Assembly: GCF_000012345.1 (NCBI RefSeq)
Contig: NC_007205.1
Location: 1,170,001-1,202,000 of the forward strand
Length of the DNA: 32,000 nucleotides
Direction of reading: 5' to 3'
DNA from: Candidatus Pelagibacter ubique HTCC1062
GTDB taxonomy: Bacteria > Pseudomonadota > Alphaproteobacteria > Pelagibacterales > Pelagibacteraceae
How positions within the stretch are numbered: the stretch's first letter is position 1; the number at the start of each line of letters is the position of its first letter. Below are positions 1,935 to 32,000 of the stretch, piece by piece. The notes under the pieces were generated by a model that made no database searches, had not been told where the DNA came from, and saw nothing but the letters and a program-made list of their open reading frames with translations. A program made the translations under genes and the position numbers.

Positions 1935-2888
1935 ATGTTTAAAAAGTTGCATATATTTCTTGGCGCAACTGTTGCAGATGCAGCAGCCCGACCTTTGCAC
2001 TGGGTGTATGATGAAAAAAAACTAAAATCTTATATTAAAGGAAAAAAAAATATTGCTTTCTTTAAACAAAATAGATCCCCATTCTACTCTATTAAAACAG
2101 GTGAAGTTTCAGGATATAATGATGTGGGTCAAGTAATGTTTAAAACATTAACTAAGACCACTAATCATAAAGAGGTTATTAAACTTTTTAAAAAGAATAT
2201 TGTCAAAAATTTTGGACCAGGGTCAAAATATTGGAAAAATTTATCTTTAAGAAAAAAATACAAAAAGATTAAGTGGAAAACAGCCATGAAAGGTCCATGG
2301 ATCCATCAAAATATTTTAGAAACTATCAAAAATATTAAATTAAAAAAAACTATCACAGGTGGGACTAAAGTTAACGAGTCTGATGGGTATTGTGCAAGCC
2401 TACCCTTTTATTTTTCAAATAATTCTGACCACAAAACAAAACAAATTATAAGAACGGTTGCTAATGGTAAAATTAGCGAACAATTTGCATTGGCAAAACT
2501 TAAGATTATTGATTTAGCTGATAAGGGGGACAAGGATCCAGTTAATAGCTTTTTAAGAAAAAATATAAAAAATAAATACTTTAAAAATGTCATTGAAAAC
2601 ATCAAAAAAGTTAAAAAGGTAAAATCAAAACCCCACAATTTTGTTGTAAAGAAATTTGGTAAAGCATGTAGTTATCCAGGTACTTTTAATGGAGGAATAC
2701 ATGCAATCATAACCTCTAAAAGTTTTAAAACTGCGGTTATTAAAACAATTAAAGCTGGTGGATGCAATTGTTCTCGTGCTAATTTTGTCGGTGCTTATTT
2801 TGCAGCTTATAAAGGTTTAAAAGGTATTCCTCAGGATTGGATAAAAAAAACAAATCCTGCAAAATCTATACTGAAATTTATTGCTTAA
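1935..2888 (+). CDS. ADP-ribosylglycohydrolase-fold protein with non-canonical metal-site residues
   Basis: N-terminal LGATVADAAARPLHWVY parallels the ARH G-x-GDALG segment. GEVSGYNDVG parallels the TDDTE segment. C-terminal GGCNCSRANFVGAYFAAYKGLKGIPQDW parallels GGD(T/A)DT..A..GA..GA..G...IP..W. The protein is very Lys-rich. Confidence 0.5.
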   Translation: MFKKLHIFLGATVADAAARPLHWVYDEKKLKSYIKGKKNIAFFKQNRSPFYSIKTGEVSGYNDVGQVMFKTLTKTTNHKEVIKLFKKNIVKNFGPGSKYWKNLSLRKKYKKIKWKTAMKGPWIHQNILETIKNIKLKKTITGGTKVNESDGYCASLPFYFSNNSDHKTKQIIRTVANGKISEQFALAKLKIIDLADKGDKDPVNSFLRKNIKNKYFKNVIENIKKVKKVKSKPHNFVVKKFGKACSYPGTFNGGIHAIITSKSFKTAVIKTIKAGGCNCSRANFVGAYFAAYKGLKGIPQDWIKKTNPAKSILKFIA

Positions 2889-4244: not shown

Positions 4245-5258
4245 ATGTTATTTCGACAACTCTTTGATAAAGCTTCAAGCACATTTACATACCTAATAGC
4301 TTCTGCAAAAGGAAGAGAGGCCTTAATCATTGATCCAGTGTTAGAAAATGTTGAACAATATATTAAGCTCCTTAAAGAACTAGATTTAAAGTTAGTAAAA
4401 GTTATTGATACTCATATCCATGCTGACCATATCTCAGGTATTGCCGAACTAAGAGATAAAACGAATTGCGTTACAGTAATGGGTGACAAAACCCCTGCTG
4501 ATGTGGTTGCAATGCAAGTTGCCGATGAAGAGACAATTAAAATTGATGGCTTAGAATTACAGGCAATTTATACCCCAGGTCACACCATAGAAAGTTTTAG
4601 CTTCTTAATGAATGATAGGGTTTTCACTGGAGATGCATTATTAATTAGAGGAACCGGTAGAACAGATTTTCAAAATGGAAATGCAAGAGATTCGTATAAT
4701 TCTATTTTTAATAAACTTTTAAAACTTCCAGATGAAACATTAATTTACCCTGCTCATGATTATAAAGGAGAGATGGTCAGTACCATAATAGAAGAAAAAA
4801 AATTCAACCCAAGACTGCAGGTAAGTTCTGCAGATCAATATATCGAAATTATGAATAATTTAAATTTGCCTAATCCAAGTATGATGGATGTTGCAGTTCC
4901 TAGTAATTTACAATTAGGAATAGATTTTAATAGACAAAAAGTAAATAACGGTGTCGAACCAGAAAAATTTAATGAAATTAAAAATGATGCTCAGTCAATT
5001 TTAATTGATCTTAGAGAGCAAAATGAAATAGATAAAGATGGTATGATTAAAAATAGTACAGTGGTTCGTTTTCCAGAAATTAACGAGTATCTACAACAAA
5101 ACAAAAATACTTTAAAAGATAAAAGAATTTTATTTTATTGCGCACATGGTCATAGATCGACTCTAGCAGTTCAATTATCAAAATCTTATCAATTTACCAA
5201 TTGTTTTCACTTAATTGGTGGTCTTAAGAATTGGAAAAAAGAAGGTTTAGATTTATAA
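4245..5258 (+). CDS. persulfide dioxygenase (ETHE1-type metallo-beta-lactamase fold) fused to a C-terminal rhodanese domain
   Basis: HIHADHISG (HxHxDH) and PGHT motifs. FTGDALLIRGTGRTDFQNG...LIYPAHDYKG...NPRLQ is nearly colinear with human ETHE1. The C-terminal domain has the rhodanese active-site loop YCAHGHRS. Confidence 0.9.
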   Translation: MLFRQLFDKASSTFTYLIASAKGREALIIDPVLENVEQYIKLLKELDLKLVKVIDTHIHADHISGIAELRDKTNCVTVMGDKTPADVVAMQVADEETIKIDGLELQAIYTPGHTIESFSFLMNDRVFTGDALLIRGTGRTDFQNGNARDSYNSIFNKLLKLPDETLIYPAHDYKGEMVSTIIEEKKFNPRLQVSSADQYIEIMNNLNLPNPSMMDVAVPSNLQLGIDFNRQKVNNGVEPEKFNEIKNDAQSILIDLREQNEIDKDGMIKNSTVVRFPEINEYLQQNKNTLKDKRILFYCAHGHRSTLAVQLSKSYQFTNCFHLIGGLKNWKKEGLDL

Positions 5259-9260: not shown

Positions 9261-10877
9261 TTAATCCTTAAGGATATATCTAGATGTAATTAAAATAAAG
9301 CAACTTGCAATAAGAATAAGCAGTAATGATGGGGCCGCTGCAGCTTCAAGTAAATCTTGGGAAGCATAAATGTATGCTTTTGTTGCAAAGGTTTCAAAAT
9401 TAAATGGTCTCATAATTAGAGTAATGGGTAATTCCTTAATTATCTCTATAGTTAACAAAATACCTATTAATAAAACAGAATTCTTTAAATAAGGAACATG
9501 AATATTTTTAAATGTTTTAAGTTTTGAATAACCAAGAAGATAAGCACTTTCATCTATAGAATAATTAATCTTTAGGTAGCCAGATTTAATTCCATTATTT
9601 GCTAAGGAATAAAATCTTATAAAGTAAACTAAAATCAGACCAAAAATTGATCCAATAAAAATAGGTTTAATCGTTTCTGTTCCAAGATAATTAATCATAT
9701 TTAGATCTAACCATGAAATAAATGTTATAAAAGCAACTGCTAAAATAATTCCAGGTATTGCATATCCAGAAATAGAAAATGTATTTAATGCTTCTAAAAA
9801 TTTACTTTTTGAAACTCTGTTTCCATAGTTTGAAATAAAGGCTAATAATATTAATAAGCAACACGATAAAAAAACTAACAACATTGTATTTGAGAATAAT
9901 TCAATTAAATTTAAATCTAAAAAGTGTTTTGGAAAAATAATTGTCCAATATAACATTTGAAAAACTGGAAATAAAAAGCTTAAGAAAAATACTAACGTAC
10001 AAAATAAAAACGCTAAAATTGATTTATAATTATATAAATGAACTACAGATTTTGATTTAAACCCTCCTTTTGATGATGTGTGATATTGAGCTTTTTTTCT
10101 AGATAGATTTTCTATAACAAAAAGTCCAAGTATAAAAATTAACAAGTAAGATGATAACCTATTTGCTAAAGTAAGATCGTCAAAAGATATCCATGCATTA
10201 TAAATACCTGTTGTTAAAGTCGACACTCCAAAAAATGAAACAGAACCAAAATCTGATAAGGTCTCCATCGCAACCAACGAAAGGCCAGCAACTATTGCAG
10301 GTCTTGCTGAAGGTAAGATTATCTTAAAAAATGATTTTTGCTTAGAAAAGCCAAGGTTTTTACCAAGTTCTATTAAGTTTTGTGACTGATAATGAAATGA
10401 TGCTCTAGTTAATACGTAAATATAACCAAATAACGAAAATGATATTGAAATTATTGCGCCTAACATTCCATCAAACTTTGGAATATGAGCGTTGTAATTT
10501 CCCTCGCCCAATAAGTTTTTTAAAATTGAAAAAGCCGTTCCATAGTTTTCAAAAAAAGCAGTTAATGAATATGCATAAATATAGGCTGGTACTGCAAAAG
10601 ATAGGATTAAAGCCCATTTAAAGAAATTAACACCAGGAAATTTATAAAATGAAACTAAATAAGCACAACCAACTCCTATAATAAAAGTTAAGGTTAAAAC
10701 ACCTGTCAAAAGTATTAATGAATTATAAATATAATCTAAAAGAAAAGTATTTTTTAAAACTGTTACATAGCCTCCAGTTGTTTCAAAGAAACTACTGAAT
10801 ACAGTTATAATGGGTACAGCTACAATTATGGATATGACAAAAGAACTAAAATACCAAATGTTAATCTTATTACCCAT
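9261..10877 (-). CDS. fbpB: iron(III) ABC transporter permease (fused double permease)
   Basis: 538 aa, about 12 TM, two repeated permease halves as in FbpB/AfuB/SfuB. It sits between the binding-protein and ATPase genes. Confidence 0.8.
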   Translation of the reverse strand: MGNKINIWYFSSFVISIIVAVPIITVFSSFFETTGGYVTVLKNTFLLDYIYNSLILLTGVLTLTFIIGVGCAYLVSFYKFPGVNFFKWALILSFAVPAYIYAYSLTAFFENYGTAFSILKNLLGEGNYNAHIPKFDGMLGAIISISFSLFGYIYVLTRASFHYQSQNLIELGKNLGFSKQKSFFKIILPSARPAIVAGLSLVAMETLSDFGSVSFFGVSTLTTGIYNAWISFDDLTLANRLSSYLLIFILGLFVIENLSRKKAQYHTSSKGGFKSKSVVHLYNYKSILAFLFCTLVFFLSFLFPVFQMLYWTIIFPKHFLDLNLIELFSNTMLLVFLSCCLLILLAFISNYGNRVSKSKFLEALNTFSISGYAIPGIILAVAFITFISWLDLNMINYLGTETIKPIFIGSIFGLILVYFIRFYSLANNGIKSGYLKINYSIDESAYLLGYSKLKTFKNIHVPYLKNSVLLIGILLTIEIIKELPITLIMRPFNFETFATKAYIYASQDLLEAAAAPSLLLILIASCFILITSRYILKD

Positions 10878-12406: not shown

Positions 12407-13681
12407 TTAAAACTGCTCAGATTCTGTTGATCCTGCCATAGCAGTTGTAGAACTTTTTCCACTACTTATGGTATTTGAAACTGCATCAAAATAAGATGTT
12501 CCAACTTCTCGTTGGTGTTTAACACTTGTATAGCCATCTTTTTCTCTAGCAAACTCAAGCTCTTGGATTTTAGAATAAGCAGTCATTCCTTCTGTTTTAT
12601 ATTTTTCAGCAAGTTCAAAAATTGCAATATTTTGAGTATGAAATCCTGCAAGAGTTATAAATTGGAATTTATATCCCATCTCACTAATTTTTTGCTGAAA
12701 TGTTGCAATCTCAGCATCTGATAAATGCTTTTTCCAATTGAATGAGGGGGAGCAATTGTAAGCTAATAATTTACCAGGAAACTTTTTATGAATTGCATCT
12801 GCAAACTTTTTTGCCTCTTCTAAGTTTGGTGTTGCAGTTTCACACCAGATTAAATCTGAATAAGGCGCGTATGCTAAACCTCTGGAAATTGCTTGATCAA
12901 TTCCGTGTTTAACATAATAAAAACCTTCTGGTGATCTTTCACCAGTTAAAAATGGTTTATCATTTTCATCAAAATCATTCGTAATTAATTTTGCAGCATT
13001 AGCGTCAGTCCTTGCTAAAATTATTAAGGGTACATCTGCGATATCCGCTGCAAGTCTTGCAGCTTTTAAGTTTTTAATCATAGTGCCAGTTGGAACTAAA
13101 ACTTTTCCACCCATATGGCCACATTTTTTTTCGCTAGCTAATTGATCTTCAAAGTGAACTCCAGCCGCACCTGCTTTAATAAATTTTTTTGCTAATTCAA
13201 AAACATTTAATGGACCACCAAAACCTGCTTCACCATCTGCAATAATAGGCAACATATAATCTGTTCTATCATTTGATTTCATTTCACCATCTTGTAATTC
13301 CATATGCTGAATTTGATCTGCTCTAATTAATGCATTATTCATCGACTCAACTAATTTTGGCGCACTATCATATGGATATAAGGATTGATCTGGATACATT
13401 TCACCAGCCGTATTTGCATCAGCTGCTACTTGCCATCCACTTAAATAAATTGCTTTTAATCCAGCTTTTGCATGTTGAATAGCATGGTTTCCCGATAGAG
13501 ATCCCAATGTATTAATATAATTTTCTGAATTTAACAAATCCCATAATTTTTTGGATTGGTGTTTACACATAGAGTATTCAATTTTAAATGAACCTCTTAA
13601 TCTCTCAACCTCTTCTGGGGTATAATCTCTTTTAATTCCTGCAAATCTTTTTAAATCGTATGAGATGTTCTCAGCACTCAT
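12407..13681 (-). CDS. aceA: isocitrate lyase
   Basis: Signature KKCGHMGGK and 424 aa colinear with bacterial ICL ([26 protein letters not shown]). Confidence 0.95.
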
Positions 13682-13999: not shown

Positions 14000-15433
14000 A
14001 TGAGTCAATTAGATATTAAAATAGGTCCAAAAATAAAAGCTTTTAGAAGGCAGTTAGGACTGCAAGCTAATAAACTTTCAGAGGATCTAGGAATTTCTCC
14101 AAGCTATTTGAATTTAATTGAAAGTGGAAAAAGAAAAATAGATGGAGATTTATTACTTAAGGTTTGTGAAAAATTAAATATTCAACTTTCAGACTTAACT
14201 TCAAAATCAGATATTAATTTAGAAAATACAATTTCAGAAATTTTAGATGATAAATTATTTGAAGACTTAGATATTCTTGGTCCTGAAGTTAAAGACCTTG
14301 TTGGCACAAACCCAAAGATCGGTAGAGCCCTTGTTAGATTAGGAGATATTCTTAAAAAGAAAGATCACGAACTAATTGATAAAATAGAAAAAATTTCAGG
14401 TAAGATAGTGGATAATAGAAAAAACTCTTTTCCTGGCGAAGTAATATCTGATTTTCTTCAACAGCATAAAAACTATTTTCCAAAATTAGAAGAATTTGCA
14501 AATAAAGTTTTTGATAAAATTCAAAAAAATAATAGAACTCGATATATTGCGTTATGTGAGTATTTAAATAAAGAATATTCAATTACAGTAAAAGATATTT
14601 TACCTGAAGAAGGAAAGCCTTTTTCTAAAATCTATAATAAGAGCAAAAAAGAACTTTTGTTAAGTGATTATAGTTCCCTAGAAACAAAAAAACTTCATGC
14701 AGCAGCTCAGATAGCTCAAGAAGGAGCAATGAAAGATATTGATATTTATTTATCAAAATTTTCTTTTCCATCAGATGAGTCTAAAAAATTAACTAAAGTT
14801 GCATTATTGAATTATTGTGGTGCTGCAATTTTAATGCCTTACAAGCCCTTTCATGCTGAATGTAAAAAATTAAAATATGACTTGGAACTTTTACAAAATA
14901 CATTTGCAACTTCTTTTGAGCAAGTTGCTCACCGTGTAACATGTTTACAAGACCCAAAATTACCTGGAATTCCTTTTCACATGTTAAGAGTTGATATGGC
15001 TGGAAATATTTCAAAAAGATTTTCATTATCAGGAATTGATATACCAAGATATGGTGGTGCATGTCCTAGATGGAATGTTTATTCAGCCTTCACAAGACCC
15101 GGTGTTATTCAAGCAGCAGTTAGTAAAATGACTAATGGTGAAAAATATGTGTGTATTGCAAGAACAGTTGAAAAAGGTGTCGGACGATTTGGTCAATCAA
15201 AAAGTATTTTATCAATTGGACTAGGTTGTGACGCAAAGTATGCAAAAGATTTTGTGTACACTGAAAACATTAATGTAAGTGATAAAACTACAGAAATTCC
15301 CATTGGTGTATCTTGCAGAACTTGTGATAGATTGGATTGTCCACAAAGAGCGTTTCCACCTTTACACAAAAAATTTGATGTAGATATCAATTCTAGAGGT
15401 GTTTCAGTTTATGTTAATGATAAGTCTAGTTAA
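14000..15433 (+). CDS. ramB: RamB/ScfR-type short-chain fatty acyl-CoA regulator (XRE HTH + ImmA/IrrE-like domain + Cys-rich C-terminal domain)
   Basis: N-terminal XRE HTH with the family-typical LGISPSYLNLIESGKR. Central IMPY..F segment. C-terminal GACPRWNV ... CRTCDRLDCPQRAFPP cysteine motif. Divergent from aceA, as in actinobacterial and Paracoccus RamB loci. Confidence 0.75.
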   Translation: MSQLDIKIGPKIKAFRRQLGLQANKLSEDLGISPSYLNLIESGKRKIDGDLLLKVCEKLNIQLSDLTSKSDINLENTISEILDDKLFEDLDILGPEVKDLVGTNPKIGRALVRLGDILKKKDHELIDKIEKISGKIVDNRKNSFPGEVISDFLQQHKNYFPKLEEFANKVFDKIQKNNRTRYIALCEYLNKEYSITVKDILPEEGKPFSKIYNKSKKELLLSDYSSLETKKLHAAAQIAQEGAMKDIDIYLSKFSFPSDESKKLTKVALLNYCGAAILMPYKPFHAECKKLKYDLELLQNTFATSFEQVAHRVTCLQDPKLPGIPFHMLRVDMAGNISKRFSLSGIDIPRYGGACPRWNVYSAFTRPGVIQAAVSKMTNGEKYVCIARTVEKGVGRFGQSKSILSIGLGCDAKYAKDFVYTENINVSDKTTEIPIGVSCRTCDRLDCPQRAFPPLHKKFDVDINSRGVSVYVNDKSS

Positions 15434-26012: not shown

Positions 26013-26513
26013 TTAAATTGAAGATCCTAGGGGCATTGGAGCGGACACCATTGTGGTCAACCAGCAGTCTTTGAAGGGACCATCTATTTTATACTTTTCA
26101 ACCTGCCATTTAAATTTGTAATAGGATTTGTCTTTTCCAAGAACACTAACTTCAAACAAGGCTACTGAATTGTTAAGGTTTTCTTGAACAATTTCATGAT
26201 CTAAATGATCTAATAATATTTTATATGACTTGCCCTTCAGCATGGTCTTAAATCTATCTAAAGGTCCTGTGCTTTTTCTATTACTAGGATGAGCAAATTC
26301 CCAGGTTTGTTCAATGCCATTATCTATAGTGGGAGAGTTGTTTTTTTGTAAACTTTTCAACTGAATTTCCACAACCTGGTATGGCTCAATATTACTATTA
26401 GGCTTTATTAATTCTGCTTGTGAAATTGTAAGACTTAGAAAGTAAATTAATAAGGTTTTATATATTATTTGCTGTCTTTTTAACGTCCTCAAGAAATTCT
26501 TTTCGTTTTTCAT
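26013..26513 (-). CDS. secreted hypothetical protein, DUF4864-like
   Basis: Signal-like N-terminus (LLIYFLSLTISQA). The pattern VVEIQLKSL...WEFAHPSNR...GPLDRFKTML resembles the DUF4864 family as I recall it. Confidence 0.4.
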   Translation of the reverse strand: MKNEKNFLRTLKRQQIIYKTLLIYFLSLTISQAELIKPNSNIEPYQVVEIQLKSLQKNNSPTIDNGIEQTWEFAHPSNRKSTGPLDRFKTMLKGKSYKILLDHLDHEIVQENLNNSVALFEVSVLGKDKSYYKFKWQVEKYKIDGPFKDCWLTTMVSAPMPLGSSI

Positions 26514-27027
26514 CTGTTACAAACGGTACTGCAAAATATCTTCTGTATACAATATTATAAATGCCACACATATGAAACACACCTCTTTTTAGCCTTCTAA
26601 TAGGTAAATTTAAAAAAAATGTTGTAACCGCTAACCTTGGGGATCCATAGGTACAAAAGATTATAGCTTTTTTATCTTTTAAGTTTCCCATTGGATAACC
26701 ATAATTTCCAACTAATTTTTTAAATGTGTAAGCCCATGGGGGTGACAAAACTTTATCTATCCAGCCTTCTACAATAGCTGGCATTCTAAAGTTCCAAATA
26801 GGTGCAATTAGAACAATAATATCACATTTCTCAATACGTCTTCTATGATCTAGAACGTCTTCTCCAGCTTGTTCACCTGCAAAAACTGGATTGAATTTAT
26901 CTTTATATAAATCTACACAATCAACTGTATTACCGTTTTTTTCTGCTGTTTTAATAAATGTATCTCTAATAGCTGCATTAAAAGACTTTTCATTATAGTG
27001 CCCGTATAAAAGAAATATTTTTTTCAT
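26458..27027 (-). CDS. flavodoxin-like-fold NAD(P)H dehydrogenase (quinone)/FMN reductase family protein
   Basis: MKKIFLLYGHYNEKSFNAAI...DLYKDKFNPVF...IWNFRMPAIVEGWIDKV matches the Flavodoxin_2 (NQO/KefF-like) pattern. Confidence 0.7.
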   Translation of the reverse strand: MKKIFLLYGHYNEKSFNAAIRDTFIKTAEKNGNTVDCVDLYKDKFNPVFAGEQAGEDVLDHRRRIEKCDIIVLIAPIWNFRMPAIVEGWIDKVLSPPWAYTFKKLVGNYGYPMGNLKDKKAIIFCTYGSPRLAVTTFFLNLPIRRLKRGVFHMCGIYNIVYRRYFAVPFVTDEKRKEFLEDVKKTANNI

Positions 27028-27065: not shown

Positions 27066-27263
27066 ATGAAAAATTTTTACGTAGTTGCTGGTATTCATAA
27101 AGATCCAAATAAAATTGAAACTATCATTAAAGATACAGAAAAAAAATTTGGACCTTTTGAGGAGATTGAAGCTAATAATTTAGCTAAGAGTTTAATTCAA
27201 AAAAATATAGATGATTTTTATCATCGTGCTTGGATTGTTAAATCTAATAATTTAACCAAATAA
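27066..27263 (+). CDS. small hypothetical protein, DUF4170-like
   Basis: 65 aa. The pattern YVVAGI...GPFEE...A......[12 protein letters not shown] resembles the alphaproteobacterial DUF4170 family as I recall it. Confidence 0.4.
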   Translation: MKNFYVVAGIHKDPNKIETIIKDTEKKFGPFEEIEANNLAKSLIQKNIDDFYHRAWIVKSNNLTK

Positions 27264-27643
27264 AACCCAACAAACATAAAAATTACAAAGCTTACAGAAT
27301 TTAAATTTAATAAAGCCAGTGAGGCTATTGCAGGTCCTGGACATAATCCAGCTAAGCCCCAGCCTGCACCAAAAAGTGATGAACCTATAATTAATTTCTT
27401 ATTTAGTTCTTTATTATTTGAATAAGAAAATTTATCAGCAAAAATTGGTTTCTTATTATTTTTAAATAAATGAAAAAATGGTGAGGATATTATTAAAGCT
27501 CCAATCATAACAAATGCTAATGATGGGTCCCATTCTCCAAAAATATTTAAAAAACCTAAGACTTTAGCGGGATCTATCATCTGTGAAACAGTAAGACCTA
27601 TTCCAAAAATTATTCCACAAATTAAAGATATAATCTTATTCAT
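27221..27643 (-). CDS. YeeE/YedE-family sulfur-compound transport protein, second half-channel
   Basis: 140 aa, 4 [17 protein letters not shown] conserved-Cys motif. ATGA overlap with the preceding half. Confidence 0.75.
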
Positions 27644-28059
27644 ATTAAATTTTTTACCAAAACAGTTAAAATTCCAACAATCATAAATGTTACTGTTGCA
27701 ATAATTGATCTTAAAGAAAATCTTCCAATACCACTGATGCCGTGTCCACTAGTACAGCCACCACCTATTCTTGTACCAGCTCCAACCAATAAGCCTGCAA
27801 TTGCTAATAAATAAAATGAGTTTGAAATTGTGATATTGATTTCCTGTTGAGTAAATATTTTATAAACAATAGGTCCGATAATTAATCCAATTAAAAATAA
27901 AAAATTATCAAATCTATTATCTTTTGAAGTTAAAAAATTACTGGCAATTCCACTTATTCCAATTAATCGACCATTAAATACAAAAAAAATAATTACTGCT
28001 AAACCAATTAAGGATCCACCTAGAAATGCAGAGATTGGAGTAAAATTAACTATATTCAT
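27640..28059 (-). CDS. YeeE/YedE-family sulfur-compound transport protein, first half-channel
   Basis: 139 aa, 4 [16 protein letters not shown] motif characteristic of the YeeE/YedE family. Confidence 0.75.
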
Positions 28060-28497
28060 TTAACTTTGTAATACTGGAAAAGCAGGGTTTATATTTAAAA
28101 AAAGCTTTTGATATTCCATCTTTGTACATCTATTTTCAATATACTCAATATCATTACTCTCCACTAATTCTTTAGCATCAATGCTTCTAATTCCAAGTTG
28201 TAACCAAAGAACTTTAGCTCCAATTTTAACACTCTCTTCAGCATACTTGTTAGCTTCAGATGATGGTCTAAATACATCTACGATATCAATAGGTATATTA
28301 ATATCTTCAAGTTTTTCAAAAACCTCTTCTCCTAAAATCTTTTGACCTTTGGCACTTGGATTAACTGGAATAACTTTAAAACCATATTTTTGCATATACT
28401 TCATCACTATTGTTGATGGCTTTTTATCATCTTTACTAACACCCACCATCGCTATTGTTTTATACTTTGAGAGAATTTCTTTTATTTTATCGTTCAC
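28060..28497 (-). CDS. CoA-binding domain protein (YccU/YneT-like)
   Basis: IAMVGVSKDDKKPSTIVMKYMQKYGFKVIPVNP matches the CoA_binding_2 N-terminal Rossmann pattern. 145 aa. Confidence 0.8.
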   Translation of the reverse strand: MNDKIKEILSKYKTIAMVGVSKDDKKPSTIVMKYMQKYGFKVIPVNPSAKGQKILGEEVFEKLEDINIPIDIVDVFRPSSEANKYAEESVKIGAKVLWLQLGIRSIDAKELVESNDIEYIENRCTKMEYQKLFLNINPAFPVLQS

Positions 28498-29282
28498 TAC
28501 TTATGTTTCCACTTAGGTTTTCTCTTTTGTAGAAACGCTGATATGCCTTCTTTAGCATCCATTGCCATCATATTTTTAGTCATCATTTTACTAGTGTATG
28601 CGTAAGCTTTTCTCAATGGCATTTCTAATTGATTATAAAAAGTTTGTTTTCCAATTTTAATTGTAAGACTTGATTTTGAAGCAATAGTTTTAGCAACTTT
28701 TAATACTTCATTGTTTAATTTTGATTTAGAAAAATGATTATTAACTAGTCCAATTTCTTTTGCGTAATCTGCTTTAATAGGCTCTCCCGTTAACAGCATA
28801 TGCATCATTCTTTTTCTATTAACCTTTCTACTAACAGCAACCATCGGTGTGCTACAAAATAAGCCTATATTTACACCTGGTGTTGCAAAAATTGCATCAT
28901 TAGTACTGTAAGCTAGATCACAACTTGCAACTAACTGGCAACCTGCTGCAAATGCTGCTCCATGAACTTTTGCAATAACTGGCTTTTTTCCTTCAACTAT
29001 TTGAAGCATCAACTTTGAGCAAAGATTAAAAAGTTTTTGATATTTTTCTCTTTTCTTTAATCCACTTACTTCTTTTAAATTGTGACCCGCACTAAAACCT
29101 TTTCCAGACCCTTCGATAATTATTACCTTAATATTTTTGTTTTCATCTAGTTTTTTAAAAGCTTTAATTAAATCTCCTAAATTTTTTAATGAAAGAGCGT
29201 TATAGGTTTTTGGCTCATTAATGATGATTGAAGCAATATCTTTATTTAAAAGTTTAATTTTAATATTACTTAAGTTTGCCAT
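28497..29282 (-). CDS. enoyl-CoA hydratase/isomerase family protein (ECHDC3-like)
   Basis: GKGFSAGHNLKE, ATPGVNIGLFCSTPMVAVSR, LLTGEPI and C-terminal EGISAFLQKRKPKW are close to the ECHDC3 subfamily pattern. Confidence 0.85.
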   Translation of the reverse strand: MANLSNIKIKLLNKDIASIIINEPKTYNALSLKNLGDLIKAFKKLDENKNIKVIIIEGSGKGFSAGHNLKEVSGLKKREKYQKLFNLCSKLMLQIVEGKKPVIAKVHGAAFAAGCQLVASCDLAYSTNDAIFATPGVNIGLFCSTPMVAVSRKVNRKRMMHMLLTGEPIKADYAKEIGLVNNHFSKSKLNNEVLKVAKTIASKSSLTIKIGKQTFYNQLEMPLRKAYAYTSKMMTKNMMAMDAKEGISAFLQKRKPKWKHK

Positions 29283-29640
29283 CTTCTCTCATTTTGGCTC
29301 TAATTTTTGTTGCAGAAATTTGTTGAATTTCTTCTGACAAAACAACTTCTTCTATTTTGTAACCAACTCCTCTTCCATAACAAATATTAGTAATATTAGG
29401 AACCATCATTATTTTAAATCTTCCTTCAAATTCTGGGTTTAACTTTTCTTCAATATTTTTTTTAACTGTGTCAAAATCAAACGGATTATCGTCAACACCT
29501 TGAACATCTCTTATTTGAATGCAAACTTGACCTGTTTTTTTAATAATTTCTTGAAATAAAGCATAGTGACCATCATGAAATGGTTGCCATCTGCCAAGCA
29601 TTTGTGCTGTTGGTTTTTTATTATCCCATTCGTACGCCAT
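29266..29640 (-). CDS. minimal HxGH nucleotidyltransferase (cytidylyltransferase-like fold, NMNAT/PPAT/TagD-sized)
   Basis: GRWQPFHDGH (compare archaeal NMNAT GRFQPFHxGH) and C-terminal ISATKIR (ISxT..R). 124 aa from the ATG at 29640, which forms a TAATG overlap with the upstream stop. The track start at 29673 is less likely. Confidence 0.6.
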   Translation of the reverse strand: MAYEWDNKKPTAQMLGRWQPFHDGHYALFQEIIKKTGQVCIQIRDVQGVDDNPFDFDTVKKNIEEKLNPEFEGRFKIMMVPNITNICYGRGVGYKIEEVVLSEEIQQISATKIRAKMREDGKLK

Positions 29641-30047
29641 TATTTTATCTCCTTTATAATTATTGGTGCCCAATGTTTAGCATCTTGAGTTGTAACCTGA
29701 CAATCAAATTTTTCAGGCTTTACAAACATTTTGTTAGTATCGTCAAAACGTCCCTCTTTTATTGTATTTACCCAAACTATATAATCTGCAGGAAACAAGT
29801 TTCTTGCCTCCGGTGTTGGGCAAACAAAGTCTGCTACGACATAATTTCCATCATCTTTTAATTTTTTTGCAAAATCTGCCATTCTACTTGCTTGTCTTGT
29901 TCTGCCTTCTTTTGAAAAATCCCAATCATTAGCTTCTTTTCTAACTTCATCAGCATTAAGTCTTTTAGCATTTAGTAATGGAGCAATTTCATTTGCTAAA
30001 GTTGTTTTGCCAGATCCTGGAAGACCCATAATTAATATTATTTTCAT
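29640..30047 (-). CDS. small P-loop kinase with adenylylsulfate-kinase-like motifs
   Basis: Walker A GLPGSGKTT. LNADEVRK, DWDFSKEGRTRQASR and VADFVCPTPEAR align by eye with APS-kinase LDGDNVR, DLGFS..DR.EN.RR and AFISP....R. Only 135 aa. Confidence 0.55.
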   Translation of the reverse strand: MKIILIMGLPGSGKTTLANEIAPLLNAKRLNADEVRKEANDWDFSKEGRTRQASRMADFAKKLKDDGNYVVADFVCPTPEARNLFPADYIVWVNTIKEGRFDDTNKMFVKPEKFDCQVTTQDAKHWAPIIIKEIK

Positions 30048-30048
30048 T

Positions 30049-31242
30049 TTAAACTAAGTTTGTTGCAACCCATTTATGAAATTCATGTGTAGGGTTATCC
30101 ATTATCGGTGAAAAATTCCCACCATTATATACTGGTGAATTTCTACCTTCTTGCATACCCTCAATAGCTTTTATATCCTCAATCATTACTTCCTTCCAAA
30201 ATTCTGCATTTTTTTTTCTCATCTCAGTAAACTCAGAACCATTTGCACTATCATCACCAACATAATACATCGTTAAATGTTCTTTAGTCTCACTAAAAGA
30301 CTTAGGTTCTAACCAAAAAACATAAAAATGGTCTACATGAAGACCAATCATTACATTTGGAAATAAAGCGATATACTCAGCTTTTTTGAATAAGTCTTTA
30401 GGCCAATTTGGAAAATTATTGAAACTTTGATTTCCTTTAACAGGTTGATCATATTTATTTGTTCCTTGGCCAGCAAATCTATTTGGTAAACCTTGAATAT
30501 GGTAATGATCACTAATATTTGAAACTTTATTTAATTCAGGATGTATCCAAGGCAAGTGATAACTTTCACAGTAATTCTCTATTGCAAACTTCCAATTACA
30601 CTTAACATCAAGACTGAAGTATCCATGATCTTTTGAGTGCTTAAGTAATTTTTGATCTTCCTTAGATATAAATTTTGACCATCTTTCTTCGAGAGGCTTG
30701 ATATATTCATCAAACTCTAATTCATTACTATTTATATTGATAAATATTATATCCATCCAAATTTTGGTTTTAACCTCTTTTAAATTGCTCGATGATTTAT
30801 CGAATTTTTCTGTCTCATGAACATTTAGGCCTCCTATGTGAGGTGTCGCAACCAACTTTCCATCAAAATCGTAGGACCAGGAGTGGTATGGACATCTTAA
30901 GACATTTTTCAAAGCACAAGGCTCATCTAAAAGCTTGAAGCCTCTATGGCTGCAGACATTGTGAAATACCCTTATTTTTTTCTCTTTATCTCTTAAAATA
31001 ATAAGAGGGATGCCTAGTAAATTATAAGGTTGAGCATCTCCTACATTTGGCACAGAACTTCCAACGCCAATCACCGTCCATTTATCCTTGAAAATCCTCT
31101 CTCTTTCAATGCTTAGATAGTCAGAGCTAGTGTAGCACTCGTTTGGTAGGCCATGGGCTTTCTCGATGGGGTTCCCAACCACTCTAATTTTTTCCAAGTC
31201 CAAGATTTTCGAAAGTTGAAGATTTTTAAGATTTTCAGACAT
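30049..31242 (-). CDS. Rieske [2Fe-2S] non-haem-iron oxygenase, alpha-subunit type (choline-monooxygenase/GbcA-like class)
   Basis: CSH-x17-CPYH Rieske motif (CSHRGFKLLDEPCALKNVLRCPYHSW). Mononuclear iron motif ENYCESYHLPWIH. 397 aa. Confidence 0.85.
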   Translation of the reverse strand: MSENLKNLQLSKILDLEKIRVVGNPIEKAHGLPNECYTSSDYLSIERERIFKDKWTVIGVGSSVPNVGDAQPYNLLGIPLIILRDKEKKIRVFHNVCSHRGFKLLDEPCALKNVLRCPYHSWSYDFDGKLVATPHIGGLNVHETEKFDKSSSNLKEVKTKIWMDIIFININSNELEFDEYIKPLEERWSKFISKEDQKLLKHSKDHGYFSLDVKCNWKFAIENYCESYHLPWIHPELNKVSNISDHYHIQGLPNRFAGQGTNKYDQPVKGNQSFNNFPNWPKDLFKKAEYIALFPNVMIGLHVDHFYVFWLEPKSFSETKEHLTMYYVGDDSANGSEFTEMRKKNAEFWKEVMIEDIKAIEGMQEGRNSPVYNGGNFSPIMDNPTHEFHKWVATNLV

Positions 31243-31342
31243 TAAAAAAAATTATCACCAGCACAATTTTTGGCAACAAATATTTTATCCACAAGATGAA
31301 TTTCTTTGACAGCATATACAAAAAAGATAATCATCAGGAAAA

Positions 31343-32000
31343 ATGAATTTTTCACTTGAGGTTGGACCTCAAACAGATCTTAATACACTGCCTCCCGTTA
31401 AGGATGTTTATGTAACTATGCTTCCAGGAGGAGACTATAAAGAGACAGCTAACCAAACAGCGGCGTTAGTTAAAAAAGGATTTAATCCAGTTCCACATTT
31501 TCCAGCACGATCAATTACGGATGATGCTCAGCTTAAAGATTACATTGTAAGATGTAAAGATGTGGGTGCTAAACAAGCTTTAGTTATTGGAGGAAGTAGA
31601 GAGCCAGTTGGAAAATTTGATAGTTCAATTCAAATTTTAGAAACAGGATTTTTTGATGGAATTAAAATAGGAATAGCAGGACATCCAGAGGGAAGTCAGG
31701 ATATTTCTGATAAAGAATTAGAAAAGGCTATGATAGATAAAAAACCTTACGCCGACTATATAGTGACCCAGTGGTTATTAGAGAGTCAACCTATCGTAGA
31801 TTTCATTTCTAAGCAGTCAGTACCAGTGCATGTAGGAATTACTGGGCCAATGAAAATAACTAGCTTAATTAAATTTGCTAATATTGTCGGGGCGAAAAAT
31901 TCTATAAATTTTCTTAAGTCTAATTTTAGTAAGGCATTAGATTTATTGAAACCTAAAGACCCTAATGAATTAATTGGGAAAGTGAAAGAGTTTACTGGTA
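31343..32000 (+). CDS. methylenetetrahydrofolate-reductase-family protein (divergent), 3' end outside window
   Basis: Not in the ORF track because it runs off the window. ATG at 31343 is preceded by AGGA. The frame stays open to 32000. Segments SLEV.P, PHFPARS, ALVIGGS, IGIAGHPEG, IVTQW and VHVGITGP parallel the MetF TIM-barrel motifs in order. Confidence 0.6.
   Translation, partial: MNFSLEVGPQTDLNTLPPVKDVYVTMLPGGDYKETANQTAALVKKGFNPVPHFPARSITDDAQLKDYIVRCKDVGAKQALVIGGSREPVGKFDSSIQILETGFFDGIKIGIAGHPEGSQDISDKELEKAMIDKKPYADYIVTQWLLESQPIVDFISKQSVPVHVGITGPMKITSLIKFANIVGAKNSINFLKSNFSKALDLLKPKDPNELIGKVKEFTG

Follow-up and report, generated by a model that had tools for sequence, protein, structure and literature searches.

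A seven-gene block of Candidatus Pelagibacter ubique HTCC1062 as a probable assembly of separate modules, among them a candidate compact ATP sulfurylase/APS kinase pair

Architecture of the seven-gene block

The 32,000-nucleotide stretch of the Candidatus Pelagibacter ubique HTCC1062 genome analyzed here (NCBI RefSeq assembly GCF_000012345.1, contig NC_007205.1, positions 1,170,001 to 1,202,000 of the forward strand; hereafter the window, in whose own numbering all positions are given) carries seven closely packed minus-strand genes. Their products are a Rieske oxygenase, a kinase resembling adenosine 5'-phosphosulfate (APS) kinase, a small nucleotidyltransferase (NTase), a crotonase, a CoA-binding protein and the two halves of a split YeeE/YedE-type channel. 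An earlier note on this DNA had taken them for one expression unit encoding one undescribed pathway. Our analysis favors a different reading, to which we assign a probability of roughly 0.55 as a joint figure for the whole explanation, proposed functions included: the seven genes would be a strain-specific assembly of four modules (Rieske; kinase-NTase; crotonase/CoA-binding protein; YeeE/DUF6691) within a long, co-directional and tightly packed gene array of SAR11 bacteria.

Six of the window proteins are exact matches to AAZ22061, AAZ22062 and AAZ22064-AAZ22067, and AAZ22063 is presumed to be the seventh; the attribution to SAR11 made in the earlier note is thereby borne out. Since Smith et al. 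(2016) named the divergently oriented neighbors SAR11_1264 (metF) and SAR11_1265 (aminomethyltransferase), we infer that the block runs from SAR11_1263 (Rieske) down to SAR11_1257 (DUF6691); the locus tags in the following list (aa, amino acids) were all assigned in this way.

30049-31242, minus strand: Rieske oxygenase, 397 aa (AAZ22067; SAR11_1263)
29640-30047, minus strand: kinase, 135 aa (AAZ22066, annotated cysC; SAR11_1262)
29266-29640, minus strand: NTase, 124 aa (AAZ22065; SAR11_1261)
28497-29282, minus strand: crotonase, 261 aa (AAZ22064; SAR11_1260)
28060-28497, minus strand: CoA-binding protein, 145 aa, GTG start (presumably AAZ22063; SAR11_1259)
27640-28059, minus strand: YeeE half of the channel, 139 aa (AAZ22062; SAR11_1258)
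27221-27643, minus strand: DUF6691 half of the channel, 140 aa (AAZ22061; SAR11_1257)

With the list of open reading frames (ORFs) and a script we reproduced exactly the junctions reported before, i.e., +1, -1 (TAATG), -17, -1, 0 and -4 (ATGA) nt. The start of the NTase gene was taken to be the ATG that is preceded by an AAGGAG Shine-Dalgarno sequence. All domain assignments of the earlier note were upheld by Pfam and NCBIfam, and the ORF coordinates bear out the limits that it had drawn, a 100-nt divergent spacer on one side and a convergent gene on the other.

Close spacing is common in this DNA. Outside the block, eight of the 19 same-strand junctions in the window measure 4 nt or less, and some of these join apparently unrelated genes (e.g., HisI/DUF2237); six tight junctions in succession are still unusual, with an expectation of about 0.42^6 = 0.006 if the junctions were independent. 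Genes that have been inserted into the corresponding arrays of other strains are packed just as tightly: an M24 peptidase gene overlaps the kinase start by 1 nt in one of them (locus L066), and in another (L030) the crotonase gene is succeeded, at gaps of -25 to +60 nt, by genes for SBP56, a Fer2 protein and two CoA-binding proteins. Inserted genes, even that of an autotransporter, being spaced in the same manner, close packing characterizes this type of genome and not pathways. The general lesson is that in streamlined genomes junctions in the style of translational coupling do not mark pathways.

Conservation of the block across Pelagibacteraceae

To follow the block through related genomes, we scanned one genome per GTDB species and used ORF maps and tblastn searches with the window proteins to annotate the resulting 80 loci (numbered with the prefix L); 34 other species-level loci from Pelagibacteraceae, L010 included, share the array. 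The exact seven-gene set is present in none of these 34 loci, and the intact block was found only in near-identical strains, on contigs encoding identical NTase proteins. The order that prevails in the array is a methylenetetrahydrofolate reductase (MTHFR)-like gene on the opposite strand, followed by the genes for the kinase, the NTase, the crotonase, the CoA-binding protein, in some cases a flavodoxin-like protein, a DUF4864-like protein, dimethylglycine dehydrogenase (DMGDH) and electron-transfer flavoprotein (ETF). The whole array, which begins at the divergent MTHFR-like/GcvT-like pair and ends with DMGDH-ETF-ETF:QO, is enriched in C1/methyl(amine) and organosulfur functions. The neighborhood search that the earlier note had suggested for the kinase-NTase-crotonase-CoA-binding core thus finds a conserved backbone across Pelagibacteraceae, and these four genes are the only stable part of the block.

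The remaining genes come and go. The Rieske gene lies directly upstream of the kinase gene in nine loci, is one to five genes away in 16, and is absent from the interval in seven; the YeeE/DUF6691 pair is present in three (L027, L040 and L062) of about 29 evaluable loci. L010 has a methyltransferase gene where the Rieske gene would stand, and it is devoid of the YeeE pair. Even the backbone has an exception: the kinase gene is missing from L072, where the NTase gene (9878-10360) directly follows the MTHFR-like gene, and kinase-less NTase genes were also found in L046, L049 and L052, so that the NTase can exist without a kinase partner at its locus.

Insertions, identified by Pfam, occur at most junctions of the backbone. 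Upstream of the kinase gene there may be nothing, MetK, a methyltransferase, EgtB/EgtD-like genes, or a set encoding an OpuAC-permease, a Rieske protein and BHMT-like, DMGDH-like, methyltransferase and creatinase-like proteins. Between kinase and NTase, which overlap or are fused in most lineages, three loci carry an autotransporter gene of 754-778 aa (L026:10431-12767, L029, L068). The junction between NTase and crotonase can be occupied by a HalD/WelO5-like protein, a 3-hydroxyacyl-CoA dehydrogenase, GFA or PhyH, and that between crotonase and CoA-binding protein by SBP56 (methanethiol oxidase family), a 2Fe-2S ferredoxin and a second CoA-binding paralogue; the CoA-binding gene is followed by the YeeE pair, a BT1 transporter or MsrA. 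In the loci that we examined outside SAR11 synteny, neither the crotonase gene nor the CoA-binding gene is a direct neighbor of the kinase-NTase genes.

These data do not bear out the idea of one undescribed seven-gene pathway: the presence of the Rieske gene is not tied to that of the YeeE pair, unrelated genes interrupt the block, and no other species shares the full set. The earlier note had itself named a lack of co-conservation outside this genome as the finding that would speak against its proposal, and with the block confined to near-identical strains this is largely what we observed. Its suggestion of a common sulfur theme fared better; it holds for five or six of the seven genes, and it fails for the Rieske gene, which goes with quaternary-amine demethylation.

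The kinase and the NTase form one module

The kinase matches the Pfam family APS_kinase with 45.5 bits over residues 3-83 only and, among solved structures, APS kinase (PDB 2yvu, 1.8e-8). It possesses a Walker A motif (GLPGSGKTT), and its motifs LNADEVR, DWDFS, GRTRQ and FVCP align with the APS-site motifs LDGDxxR, (D)LGFS, DR..N and FISP, several positions being changed. Residues D34, R37, F45, S46 and R50 are invariant, or nearly so, across the fusion proteins described below; this D..R, F-S, R pattern we take, by comparison with APS-kinase structures, to be the putative APS half-site. The NTase displays the motifs GRWQPFHDGH, NPF, YGRGVGY and ISATKIR and matches CTP_transf_like/NMNAT weakly. 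Only profile positions 10-80 align well with nicotinamide mononucleotide adenylyltransferase (NMNAT), the NCBIfam model NF002243 yields 27 bits against a cut-off of 127, and the protein is shorter than archaeal-type NMNAT (124 vs about 170 aa). It does not possess the PUA-like N-domain of ATP sulfurylase (Sat), with which it shares the HUP fold only.

Our first search for NTase homologues was dominated by SAR11 sequences with more than 85% identity, and matches that seemed to be longer proved to be assembly chimeras with internal duplications. A search over 1.8 billion cluster representatives retrieved 1441 relatives (50% clustering). Among those that are 43-63% identical to the window NTase, many join kinase and NTase in one protein of 255-268 aa, whose N-terminal half is the same truncated kinase, the DWDFS motif included; when concatenated, the window kinase and NTase align with these fusions from end to end (50% identity to fusion P0204). 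A profile search revealed thousands of further fusions in marine metagenomes, and PHROG 10255 ('kinase') spans both halves. The notion that the kinase and the HxGH-type NTase act as a pair is thus well supported by their fusion in many lineages, and judged by sequence the two are one unit.

The AlphaFold (AF2) model of a natural kinase-NTase fusion from Pelagibacteraceae was of high confidence (pLDDT 93.3, pTM 0.88), and ranks 1-22 of its Foldseek matches are all APS kinases or PAPS synthases (PAPS, 3'-phosphoadenosine 5'-phosphosulfate), with TMt values of 0.52-0.76 for stand-alone APS-kinase chains and about 0.21 for full-length PAPS synthase entries. In the model, the kinase is structurally an APS kinase and not a kinase of the NadR type. 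The AF2 model of the NTase alone (pLDDT 68) retrieved NadM, ATP sulfurylase and phosphopantetheine adenylyltransferase (PPAT), all with E > 0.01 and with no discrimination among them.

The fusion is also found in phages. Gp35 of Xylella phage Sano (L091:4995-5732) is a fusion of the truncated kinase with the NTase, as are the corresponding proteins in 11 other full-length phage records. The carriers are Sanovirus-type phages of Xylella, Xanthomonas and Stenotrophomonas, one Clavibacter phage and Stenotrophomonas phage DLP_6. Phage Sano encodes a 'cysteine dioxygenase' and MazG as well.

Genomic contexts and a proposed role in sulfate activation

Outside SAR11 synteny no single neighbor of the kinase-NTase module recurs across lineages; genes of sulfur-nucleotide metabolism, as a class, do recur beside it in independent lineages. 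In two Pelagibacteraceae (L046, L049) the NTase gene alone is followed on the same strand by an aprM-like gene, aprB, aprA and a gene for a 116-aa protein, and in four further loci (L070, L071, L073, L075) the kinase-NTase pair stands tail to tail with aprMBA; AprA and AprB are recognized by NCBIfam at these loci with 993 and 194 bits, respectively. Three alphaproteobacterial species known from single-amplified genomes (SAGs; L021-L023) carry cysQ two ORFs upstream on the same strand (TIGR01331, 295 bits; cut-off 229), next to the kinase part, which overlaps a short ORF on the opposite strand. Sulfotransferase genes follow the module in a metagenome-assembled genome of Bradyrhizobium (L019) and in the Pelagibacteraceae locus L065. 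On haloarchaeal plasmids (L093-L095; Haladaptatus, Halomicrobium, Natrinema), a sulfotransferase gene is followed by a full-length canonical CysC fused to the NTase, which the annotation pipeline PGAP labels simply as cysC, and then by YqcI/YcgG; the protein P0234 is the reverse fusion of the NTase with canonical CysC. A match in Rhodoferax was an ordinary CysC beside a sulfotransferase, and we did not count it as evidence.

In Allochromatium vinosum, sat directly precedes aprMBA, and these genes are transcribed together (PMC3779200). The NTase gene of L046 and L049 holds this very position, directly upstream of the aprM-like gene, aprB and aprA; unlike the A. vinosum arrangement, the NTase is not homologous to sat, and in HTCC1062 its gene does not lie beside the apr genes. 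Taken as Rosetta-stone and positional-replacement arguments, the contexts suggest that the NTase may supply or consume APS.

SAR11 bacteria have a gap at this step. HTCC1062 possesses neither sat nor cysDNHIJ, and it possesses AprBA, to which a role in sulfite detoxification is ascribed (PMC5069961); another paper states that 'Most SAR11 lack ATP sulfurylase' (PMC10356861), and aprAB are the SAR11 core genes under the strongest purifying selection (PMC12636525). Among seven SAR11 genomes, 'cysC', i.e., the kinase of the block, and aprA have an identical pattern of presence and absence, and cysQ is present in all seven (Smith et al., 2016, Table 3).

The linkage to aprMBA, CysQ, sulfotransferases and canonical CysC, together with the absence of sat from SAR11, leads us to propose two reactions. 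The 124-aa, NMNAT-derived NTase would catalyze ATP + sulfate <-> APS + PPi (pyrophosphate), and the truncated APS-kinase-like protein would phosphorylate the 3'-OH of APS to yield PAPS, so that the pair would amount to a PAPS synthase of about 260 aa. In SAR11, with AprBA and CysQ and without sat or cysDN, the NTase might also dispose of the sulfite-derived APS formed by AprBA (APS + PPi -> ATP + sulfate). We consider the chances about even that the kinase and the NTase are such a compact ATP sulfurylase/APS kinase pair. Put slightly below even, and hence more tentatively, is the wider claim that the NTase family is a third, unrecognized class of ATP sulfurylase which, with its truncated kinase partner, forms the smallest known PAPS synthase and supplies the missing sat of SAR11. 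A described small ATP sulfurylase was not found in the literature that we searched, which is not proof of its absence.

Known bifunctional PAPS synthases (human PAPSS1/2; the Sat-CysC protein of Aquifex aeolicus, 2gks) likewise combine an adenylyl-transferring domain and a domain with the APS-kinase fold in one polypeptide or operon; PAPSS1 and APS kinases are the top Foldseek matches of the fusion model, and sulfotransferase, CysQ and APS reductase are shared neighbors. They differ from the module in that its transferase is NMNAT-like, only about 120 aa long and without the PUA-like domain and RNP loop of Sat, in that its kinase is lidless, and in overall size (about 260 vs about 550-620 aa).

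If the proposal is correct, the route sulfite -> APS -> sulfate (+ATP) would be completed downstream of AprBA and PAPS would be supplied for sulfation. In haloarchaea and Hyphomicrobiales, sulfotransferase cassettes would depend on a module of this kind, which Sanovirus-type phages carry as well. SAR11 is the most abundant heterotroph of the surface ocean and the textbook case of dependence on reduced sulfur, and its apr pathway is regarded as incomplete for want of sat (PMC5069961, PMC10356861), a gap that a candidate APS-converting enzyme would close. The modeling of organosulfur-derived sulfite and of sulfate fluxes would then change. Metagenome surveys that score 'sat' and 'cysC' would be affected too, as the family, which comprises more than 1400 representatives when clustered at 50%, is currently annotated as 'kinase', 'cytidylyltransferase' or 'phosphopantetheine adenylyltransferase'.

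Counter-evidence and alternative functions of the module

A number of observations weigh against a role in sulfate activation. The kinase ends without the C-terminal lid (RDxKGLYxxAR...FTGI), its alignment with APS kinases stopping near residue 85, and it stays below the cut-off of every CysC model (TIGR00455, 36.5 vs 138.7 bits); the lid is present in the haloarchaeal CysC fusions. The profile of the NTase family is closest to archaeal NMNAT (1f9a, 1e-12), and no Sat chain was matched by this profile at E <= 1. The RNP loop of sulfurylases (QxRNPxHxxH) is not reproduced in the NTase, where the motif reads GRWQPFHDGH, and in its 'GRD'-like loop the window protein has Gly in the position of Asp, only G and R being invariant in the family loop YGR(D/G)VGY. 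In several places the fused module lies in a polysaccharide or phospholipid cluster without an obvious sulfur gene, and the phage copies are surrounded by genes without known function. The conservation of kinase-NTase-crotonase-CoA-binding in SAR11 could reflect a functional link, which is discounted here, and two SAR86 genomes carry the crotonase/CoA-binding pair 7-10 kb from the kinase-NTase pair. Finally, the expression data treated below neither prove nor disprove a single transcript.

The polysaccharide and phospholipid clusters would fit a Kennedy-type pair for envelope decoration, in which the kinase phosphorylates a small alcohol or sugar and the NTase makes the NDP-activated form, which would then be transferred to a polysaccharide or lipid. 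Small HxGH cytidylyltransferases such as TagD are of a size similar to the NTase. The fused module occurs in glycosyltransferase/Wzy clusters beside a GmhA-like isomerase, and its neighbors include CTP_transf_3, epimerase, CDP-alcohol phosphatidyltransferase, UDP-glucose dehydrogenase and carbamoyltransferase genes. No such neighbor recurs across lineages, however, genes for PAPS-dependent sulfation are also found in surface-polysaccharide clusters, and the fusions with canonical CysC and the linkage to aprMBA and CysQ would be left unexplained; we therefore regard this function as unlikely. An HldE-like heptose kinase/adenylyltransferase, a possible version of it, was set aside, the GmhA-like gene following the fusion in L007-L009 only, i.e., in one lineage.

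A little less likely still is that the four backbone genes are a real unit, which might make or use a thioester or sulfo-compound containing 3'-phospho-ADP. CoA and PAPS share the 3'-phospho-ADP moiety, and the crotonase and CoA-binding protein might bind PAP(S)- or CoA-like ligands provided by the pair; an activity resembling PPAT and dephospho-CoA kinase (DPCK) has also been considered. The gene order is kept in about 30 Pelagibacteraceae species, annotators at JGI label the NTase as phosphopantetheine adenylyltransferase, and the SAR86 arrangement mentioned above would fit as well. Yet the order is no better kept than that of the adjacent DMGDH and ETF genes, every junction is split by insertions, one locus is without the kinase, and the two pairs occur apart elsewhere. 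The fusions with CysC and the sulfur-nucleotide neighbors led us to rank PPAT/DPCK low, and NadR-like NAD salvage with it.

The latter function, in which the module would be a split and reordered NadR-like enzyme with ribosylnicotinamide kinase and NMN adenylyltransferase activities, seems improbable. In its favor, the NTase profile is nearest to archaeal NMNAT and NadM (1e-12 to 3e-11), with which it shares the motifs GRxQPFHxGH, NPF and ISxTxxR; NadR also joins an NTase to a P-loop kinase, and the kinase weakly matches the NadR kinase region over its full length (TIGR01526, 1.3e-4). Phages, which carry the fusion, are known to carry NAD-salvage genes. However, only about 80 N-terminal residues of the NTase align with NMNAT, the region that follows being shortened and the C-terminal half unaligned; the Foldseek matches of the fusion model assign the kinase partner to the APS-kinase fold; haloarchaea and P0234 provide fusions of the NTase with canonical CysC; and the neighbors are aprMBA, CysQ and sulfotransferase genes, not NAD genes.

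The crotonase and the CoA-binding protein

Besides the putative sulfate-activating pair, the backbone comprises the crotonase, which belongs to ECH_1 and scores 353 bits with the NCBIfam model PRK08139 (NF006008), above the cut-off of 313. The closest structures are PDB 3myb from Mycobacterium smegmatis (2e-67) and human ECHDC3 (2vx2, 2e-64), and the motifs AAGCQLVASCD and ATPGVN(I/V)GLFCSTP are common to these proteins and the window crotonase. Both catalytic glutamates of ECHS1 are replaced: Gln116 and Gly135 occupy the positions of Glu144 and Glu164 of the rat enzyme (ECH), and in the alignment with human ECHS1 (2hw5, 8zru) GGGCELAMMCD and AQPEILIG stand against AAGCQLVASCD and ATPGVNIG. 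The protein is thus an ECHDC3-type crotonase and, by these residues, not a canonical hydratase, and generic acyl-CoA hydratase chemistry should not be taken for granted. The literature that we searched does not report an enzymatic function for the ECHDC3 family, which is not proof that none has been described. Unlike ECHDC3 and 3myb, the SAR11 protein is encoded in an organosulfur/C1 gene array.

Since SAR11 lacks an orthologue of DmdD, the crotonase of the dimethylsulfoniopropionate (DMSP) demethylation pathway, and yet needs such an activity (PMC5069961), we considered the window crotonase as the missing enzyme. The crotonase fold is shared with DmdD/AcuH, the crotonase gene is followed by that of methanethiol oxidase (SBP56) in some strains, and in roseobacters it is flanked by an acyl-CoA synthetase gene and a GcvT-family gene. 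This attractive candidacy is weakened by the residues at the active site: DmdD catalysis needs Glu121 and Glu141 (PMC3660561), which correspond to Gln116 and Gly135.

The CoA-binding protein matches the Pfam family CoA_binding_2 (PF13380) over its full length (114.5 bits; cut-off 22.8) and PDB 1iuk (2.5e-26); it is of the stand-alone YccU/TT1466 type, with ligand binding as its predicted property. The adjacency of the crotonase and CoA-binding genes recurs in SAR86 in reversed order. On the Phaeobacter plasmid pP30_b, the order is SBP56, Fer2, CoA-binding protein, rhodanese, a metallo-beta-lactamase (persulfide-dioxygenase-like), crotonase, acyl-CoA synthetase and GcvT-like protein, and on plasmids of Loktanella and other Phaeobacter strains it is Lrp, GcvT-like protein, OsmC, crotonase and acyl-CoA synthetase. 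The crotonase gene abuts that of an acyl-CoA synthetase in Paracoccus and Burkholderia, and it lies near a CoA-binding gene, followed by MetY, in Sinorhizobium meliloti. SAR11_1265, the GcvT-like protein next to the block, is 34-36% identical to the GcvT-like proteins encoded beside the ECHDC3-type crotonase on roseobacter plasmids. These contexts link the crotonase/CoA-binding module to the metabolism of methanethiol, sulfane sulfur and thioesters, in which it may act.

In six SAR11 species, a cassette of SBP56, Fer2 and CoA-binding genes is inserted after the crotonase gene. The three proteins from a Pelagibacteraceae SAG (L030:11617-13783) are 90%, 76% and 76% identical to those encoded by a Phaeobacter inhibens plasmid (L099:354-2539), which suggests a transferable cassette and a recent horizontal transfer between SAR11 and roseobacters.

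The Rieske oxygenase and the split YeeE/DUF6691 channel

The Rieske protein contains both domains typical of its class, Rieske (PF00355) and Ring_hydroxyl_A (PF00848), and its translation displays the Rieske motif (CSH...CPYH) and the mononuclear-iron motif (H-x4-H, HLPWIH). Its best solved relatives are the carnitine monooxygenase CntA (6y8j, 4e-34) and the stachydrine demethylase Stc2 (3vca); with these and with GbcA it shares the metal-ligand motifs and, in other strains, betaine-related neighbors, the gene lying in the larger arrays among glycine-betaine genes (OpuAC, BHMT-like, DMGDH-like, creatinase-like). It differs from them in its score with the NCBIfam model of GbcA, which is far below the equivalog cut-off (129 vs 670 bits), and in the lack of a partner reductase nearby, since the 32-kb window encodes no reductase of the CntB/GbcB (FNR) type, as had been noted before. 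The protein most likely belongs with quaternary-amine demethylation and not with the sulfur genes. Its most likely role, an accessory one in the array, would be to N-demethylate or cleave a quaternary or methylated amine with a reductase encoded elsewhere.

The YeeE half of the channel belongs to the Pfam family Sulf_transp and aligns with residues 227-319 of TsuA (6leo), the GGC motif included; the DUF6691 half scores 132 bits with its own Pfam model and always co-occurs with the YeeE half, and a structure search did not find a solved relative for it. We propose that the two proteins might form a channel for an inorganic sulfur anion, likewise in an accessory role. In common with the TsuA(YeeE)-TsuB(YeeD) system (6leo, 8j4c), the YeeE half has the Sulf_transp fold and the GGC(T/N)xGH cysteine motif. 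The differences are considerable: the window system consists of two polypeptides of about 140 aa and not of a single chain of about 330 aa that has three conserved Cys motifs, the TsuA model gives 32 bits against a cut-off of 400, and the pair has no YeeD/TusA partner nearby, the window as a whole containing no ORF for one, as the earlier note had stated. Split YeeE/YedE pairs under the control of BigR/PigS (PmpAB) have the same two-gene arrangement; in contrast to these, no ArsR-type regulator is found near the window pair. At 22 kb from the YeeE pair, the window encodes a metallo-beta-lactamase-rhodanese fusion of 337 aa (4245-5258, plus strand), a domain arrangement known from persulfide dioxygenase-rhodanese enzymes, which produce sulfite or thiosulfate.

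Expression of the block

To assess whether the genes are expressed together, we used the published microarray table of Smith et al., which covers 29 samples and has a background median correlation of r = 0.11 (90th percentile, 0.64). The correlations between the genes of the block were as follows.

SAR11_1258/1257: r = 0.92
SAR11_1260/1258: r = 0.78
SAR11_1261/1260: r = 0.78
SAR11_1262/1261: r = 0.48
SAR11_1263/1262: r = 0.24

The Rieske gene correlates with the other six genes at 0.24-0.54 only. The crotonase and YeeE genes correlate to a similar extent (about 0.7-0.9) with the separately transcribed divergent genes SAR11_1264/1265 and with the downstream genes 1255 and 1251-1253, and because of this the data point to a shared growth-phase response rather than to an operon-specific signal. 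The claim that the seven genes form one expression unit therefore stands in part: they are co-directional and, judged by their junctions, plausibly co-transcribed, very probably at least in part, but the low correlation of the Rieske gene does not fit. For the CoA-binding gene, SAR11_1259, the signal does not rise above background (about 2.3 log2 units, compared with 7-7.5 for its two neighbors); comparisons of level between genes are subject to probe effects, and this difference could reflect either probe failure or a real one in mRNA abundance.

A single pathway consisting of YeeE/DUF6691 import, kinase-NTase activation, a thioester step by the crotonase and CoA-binding protein, and Rieske oxygenation is very improbable in our view: although all seven genes are co-stranded with junctions of at most 1 nt apart from overlaps, remain together in close relatives, include five or six with sulfur-related associations and reach a mean pairwise correlation of 0.60 (near the 87th percentile of background), such a pathway is largely refuted by the patterns of conservation described above, and neither the behavior of the Rieske gene nor the equally good match of crotonase and YeeE to neighbors outside the block speaks for it.

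Flanking genes and other features of the window

The block is flanked by the following features.

31243-31342: divergent intergenic region of 100 nt, common to the block and the MTHFR-like/GcvT-like unit (SAR11_1264/1265)
31343-32000, cut by the window end, plus strand: MTHFR-like gene (SAR11_1264, 'metF'), weak match to PF02219
27066-27263, plus strand, convergent: DUF4170 gene, 65 aa (Pfam DUF4170, 25.4 bits; cut-off 25)

The 100-nt spacer has no match to an Rfam family, and an Rfam scan of the window was likewise empty; promoter and terminator scans gave matches no better than the shuffle background. The MTHFR-like gene (242 aa) is followed by the GcvT-like gene SAR11_1265 (452 aa), and this unit, which spans 6219-8298 in L003, is a conserved boundary of the array. 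Its mRNAs are reduced 5- to 10-fold in the stationary phases of sulfur-limited and control cultures alike, compared with exponential growth (Smith et al., 2016, Table 1). At the other end, the DUF4170 gene has 43 nt in common with the 3' end of the DUF6691 gene and is kept in L002-L006, L027 and L039.

Downstream of the block, the DUF4864-like (26013-26513) and flavodoxin-like (26458-27027) ORFs, both on the minus strand, share 56 nt according to the ORF calls. For the DUF4864-like ORF, the start at 26513 is probably mis-set; related contigs carry the same called overlap. Near the other end of the window, the gene for a protein of the ADP-ribosylglycohydrolase family (1935-2888, plus strand) abuts an apparently unrelated MatE transporter gene with a 0-nt junction. 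Two minus-strand genes, 490-1194 and 1170-1883, overlap by 25 nt and encode an FGE-sulfatase-like protein and an S-adenosylmethionine-dependent methyltransferase; this pair resembles a split thiol-histidine enzyme of the OvoA/EgtB type, and EgtB-/EgtD-like genes are found within the array in L030 and L036. Between an isocitrate lyase gene (12407-13681, minus strand; 724 bits) and a divergent gene for a regulator of the RamB/ScfR type (14000-15433, plus strand) lie 318 nt; few spacers of the window are this long.

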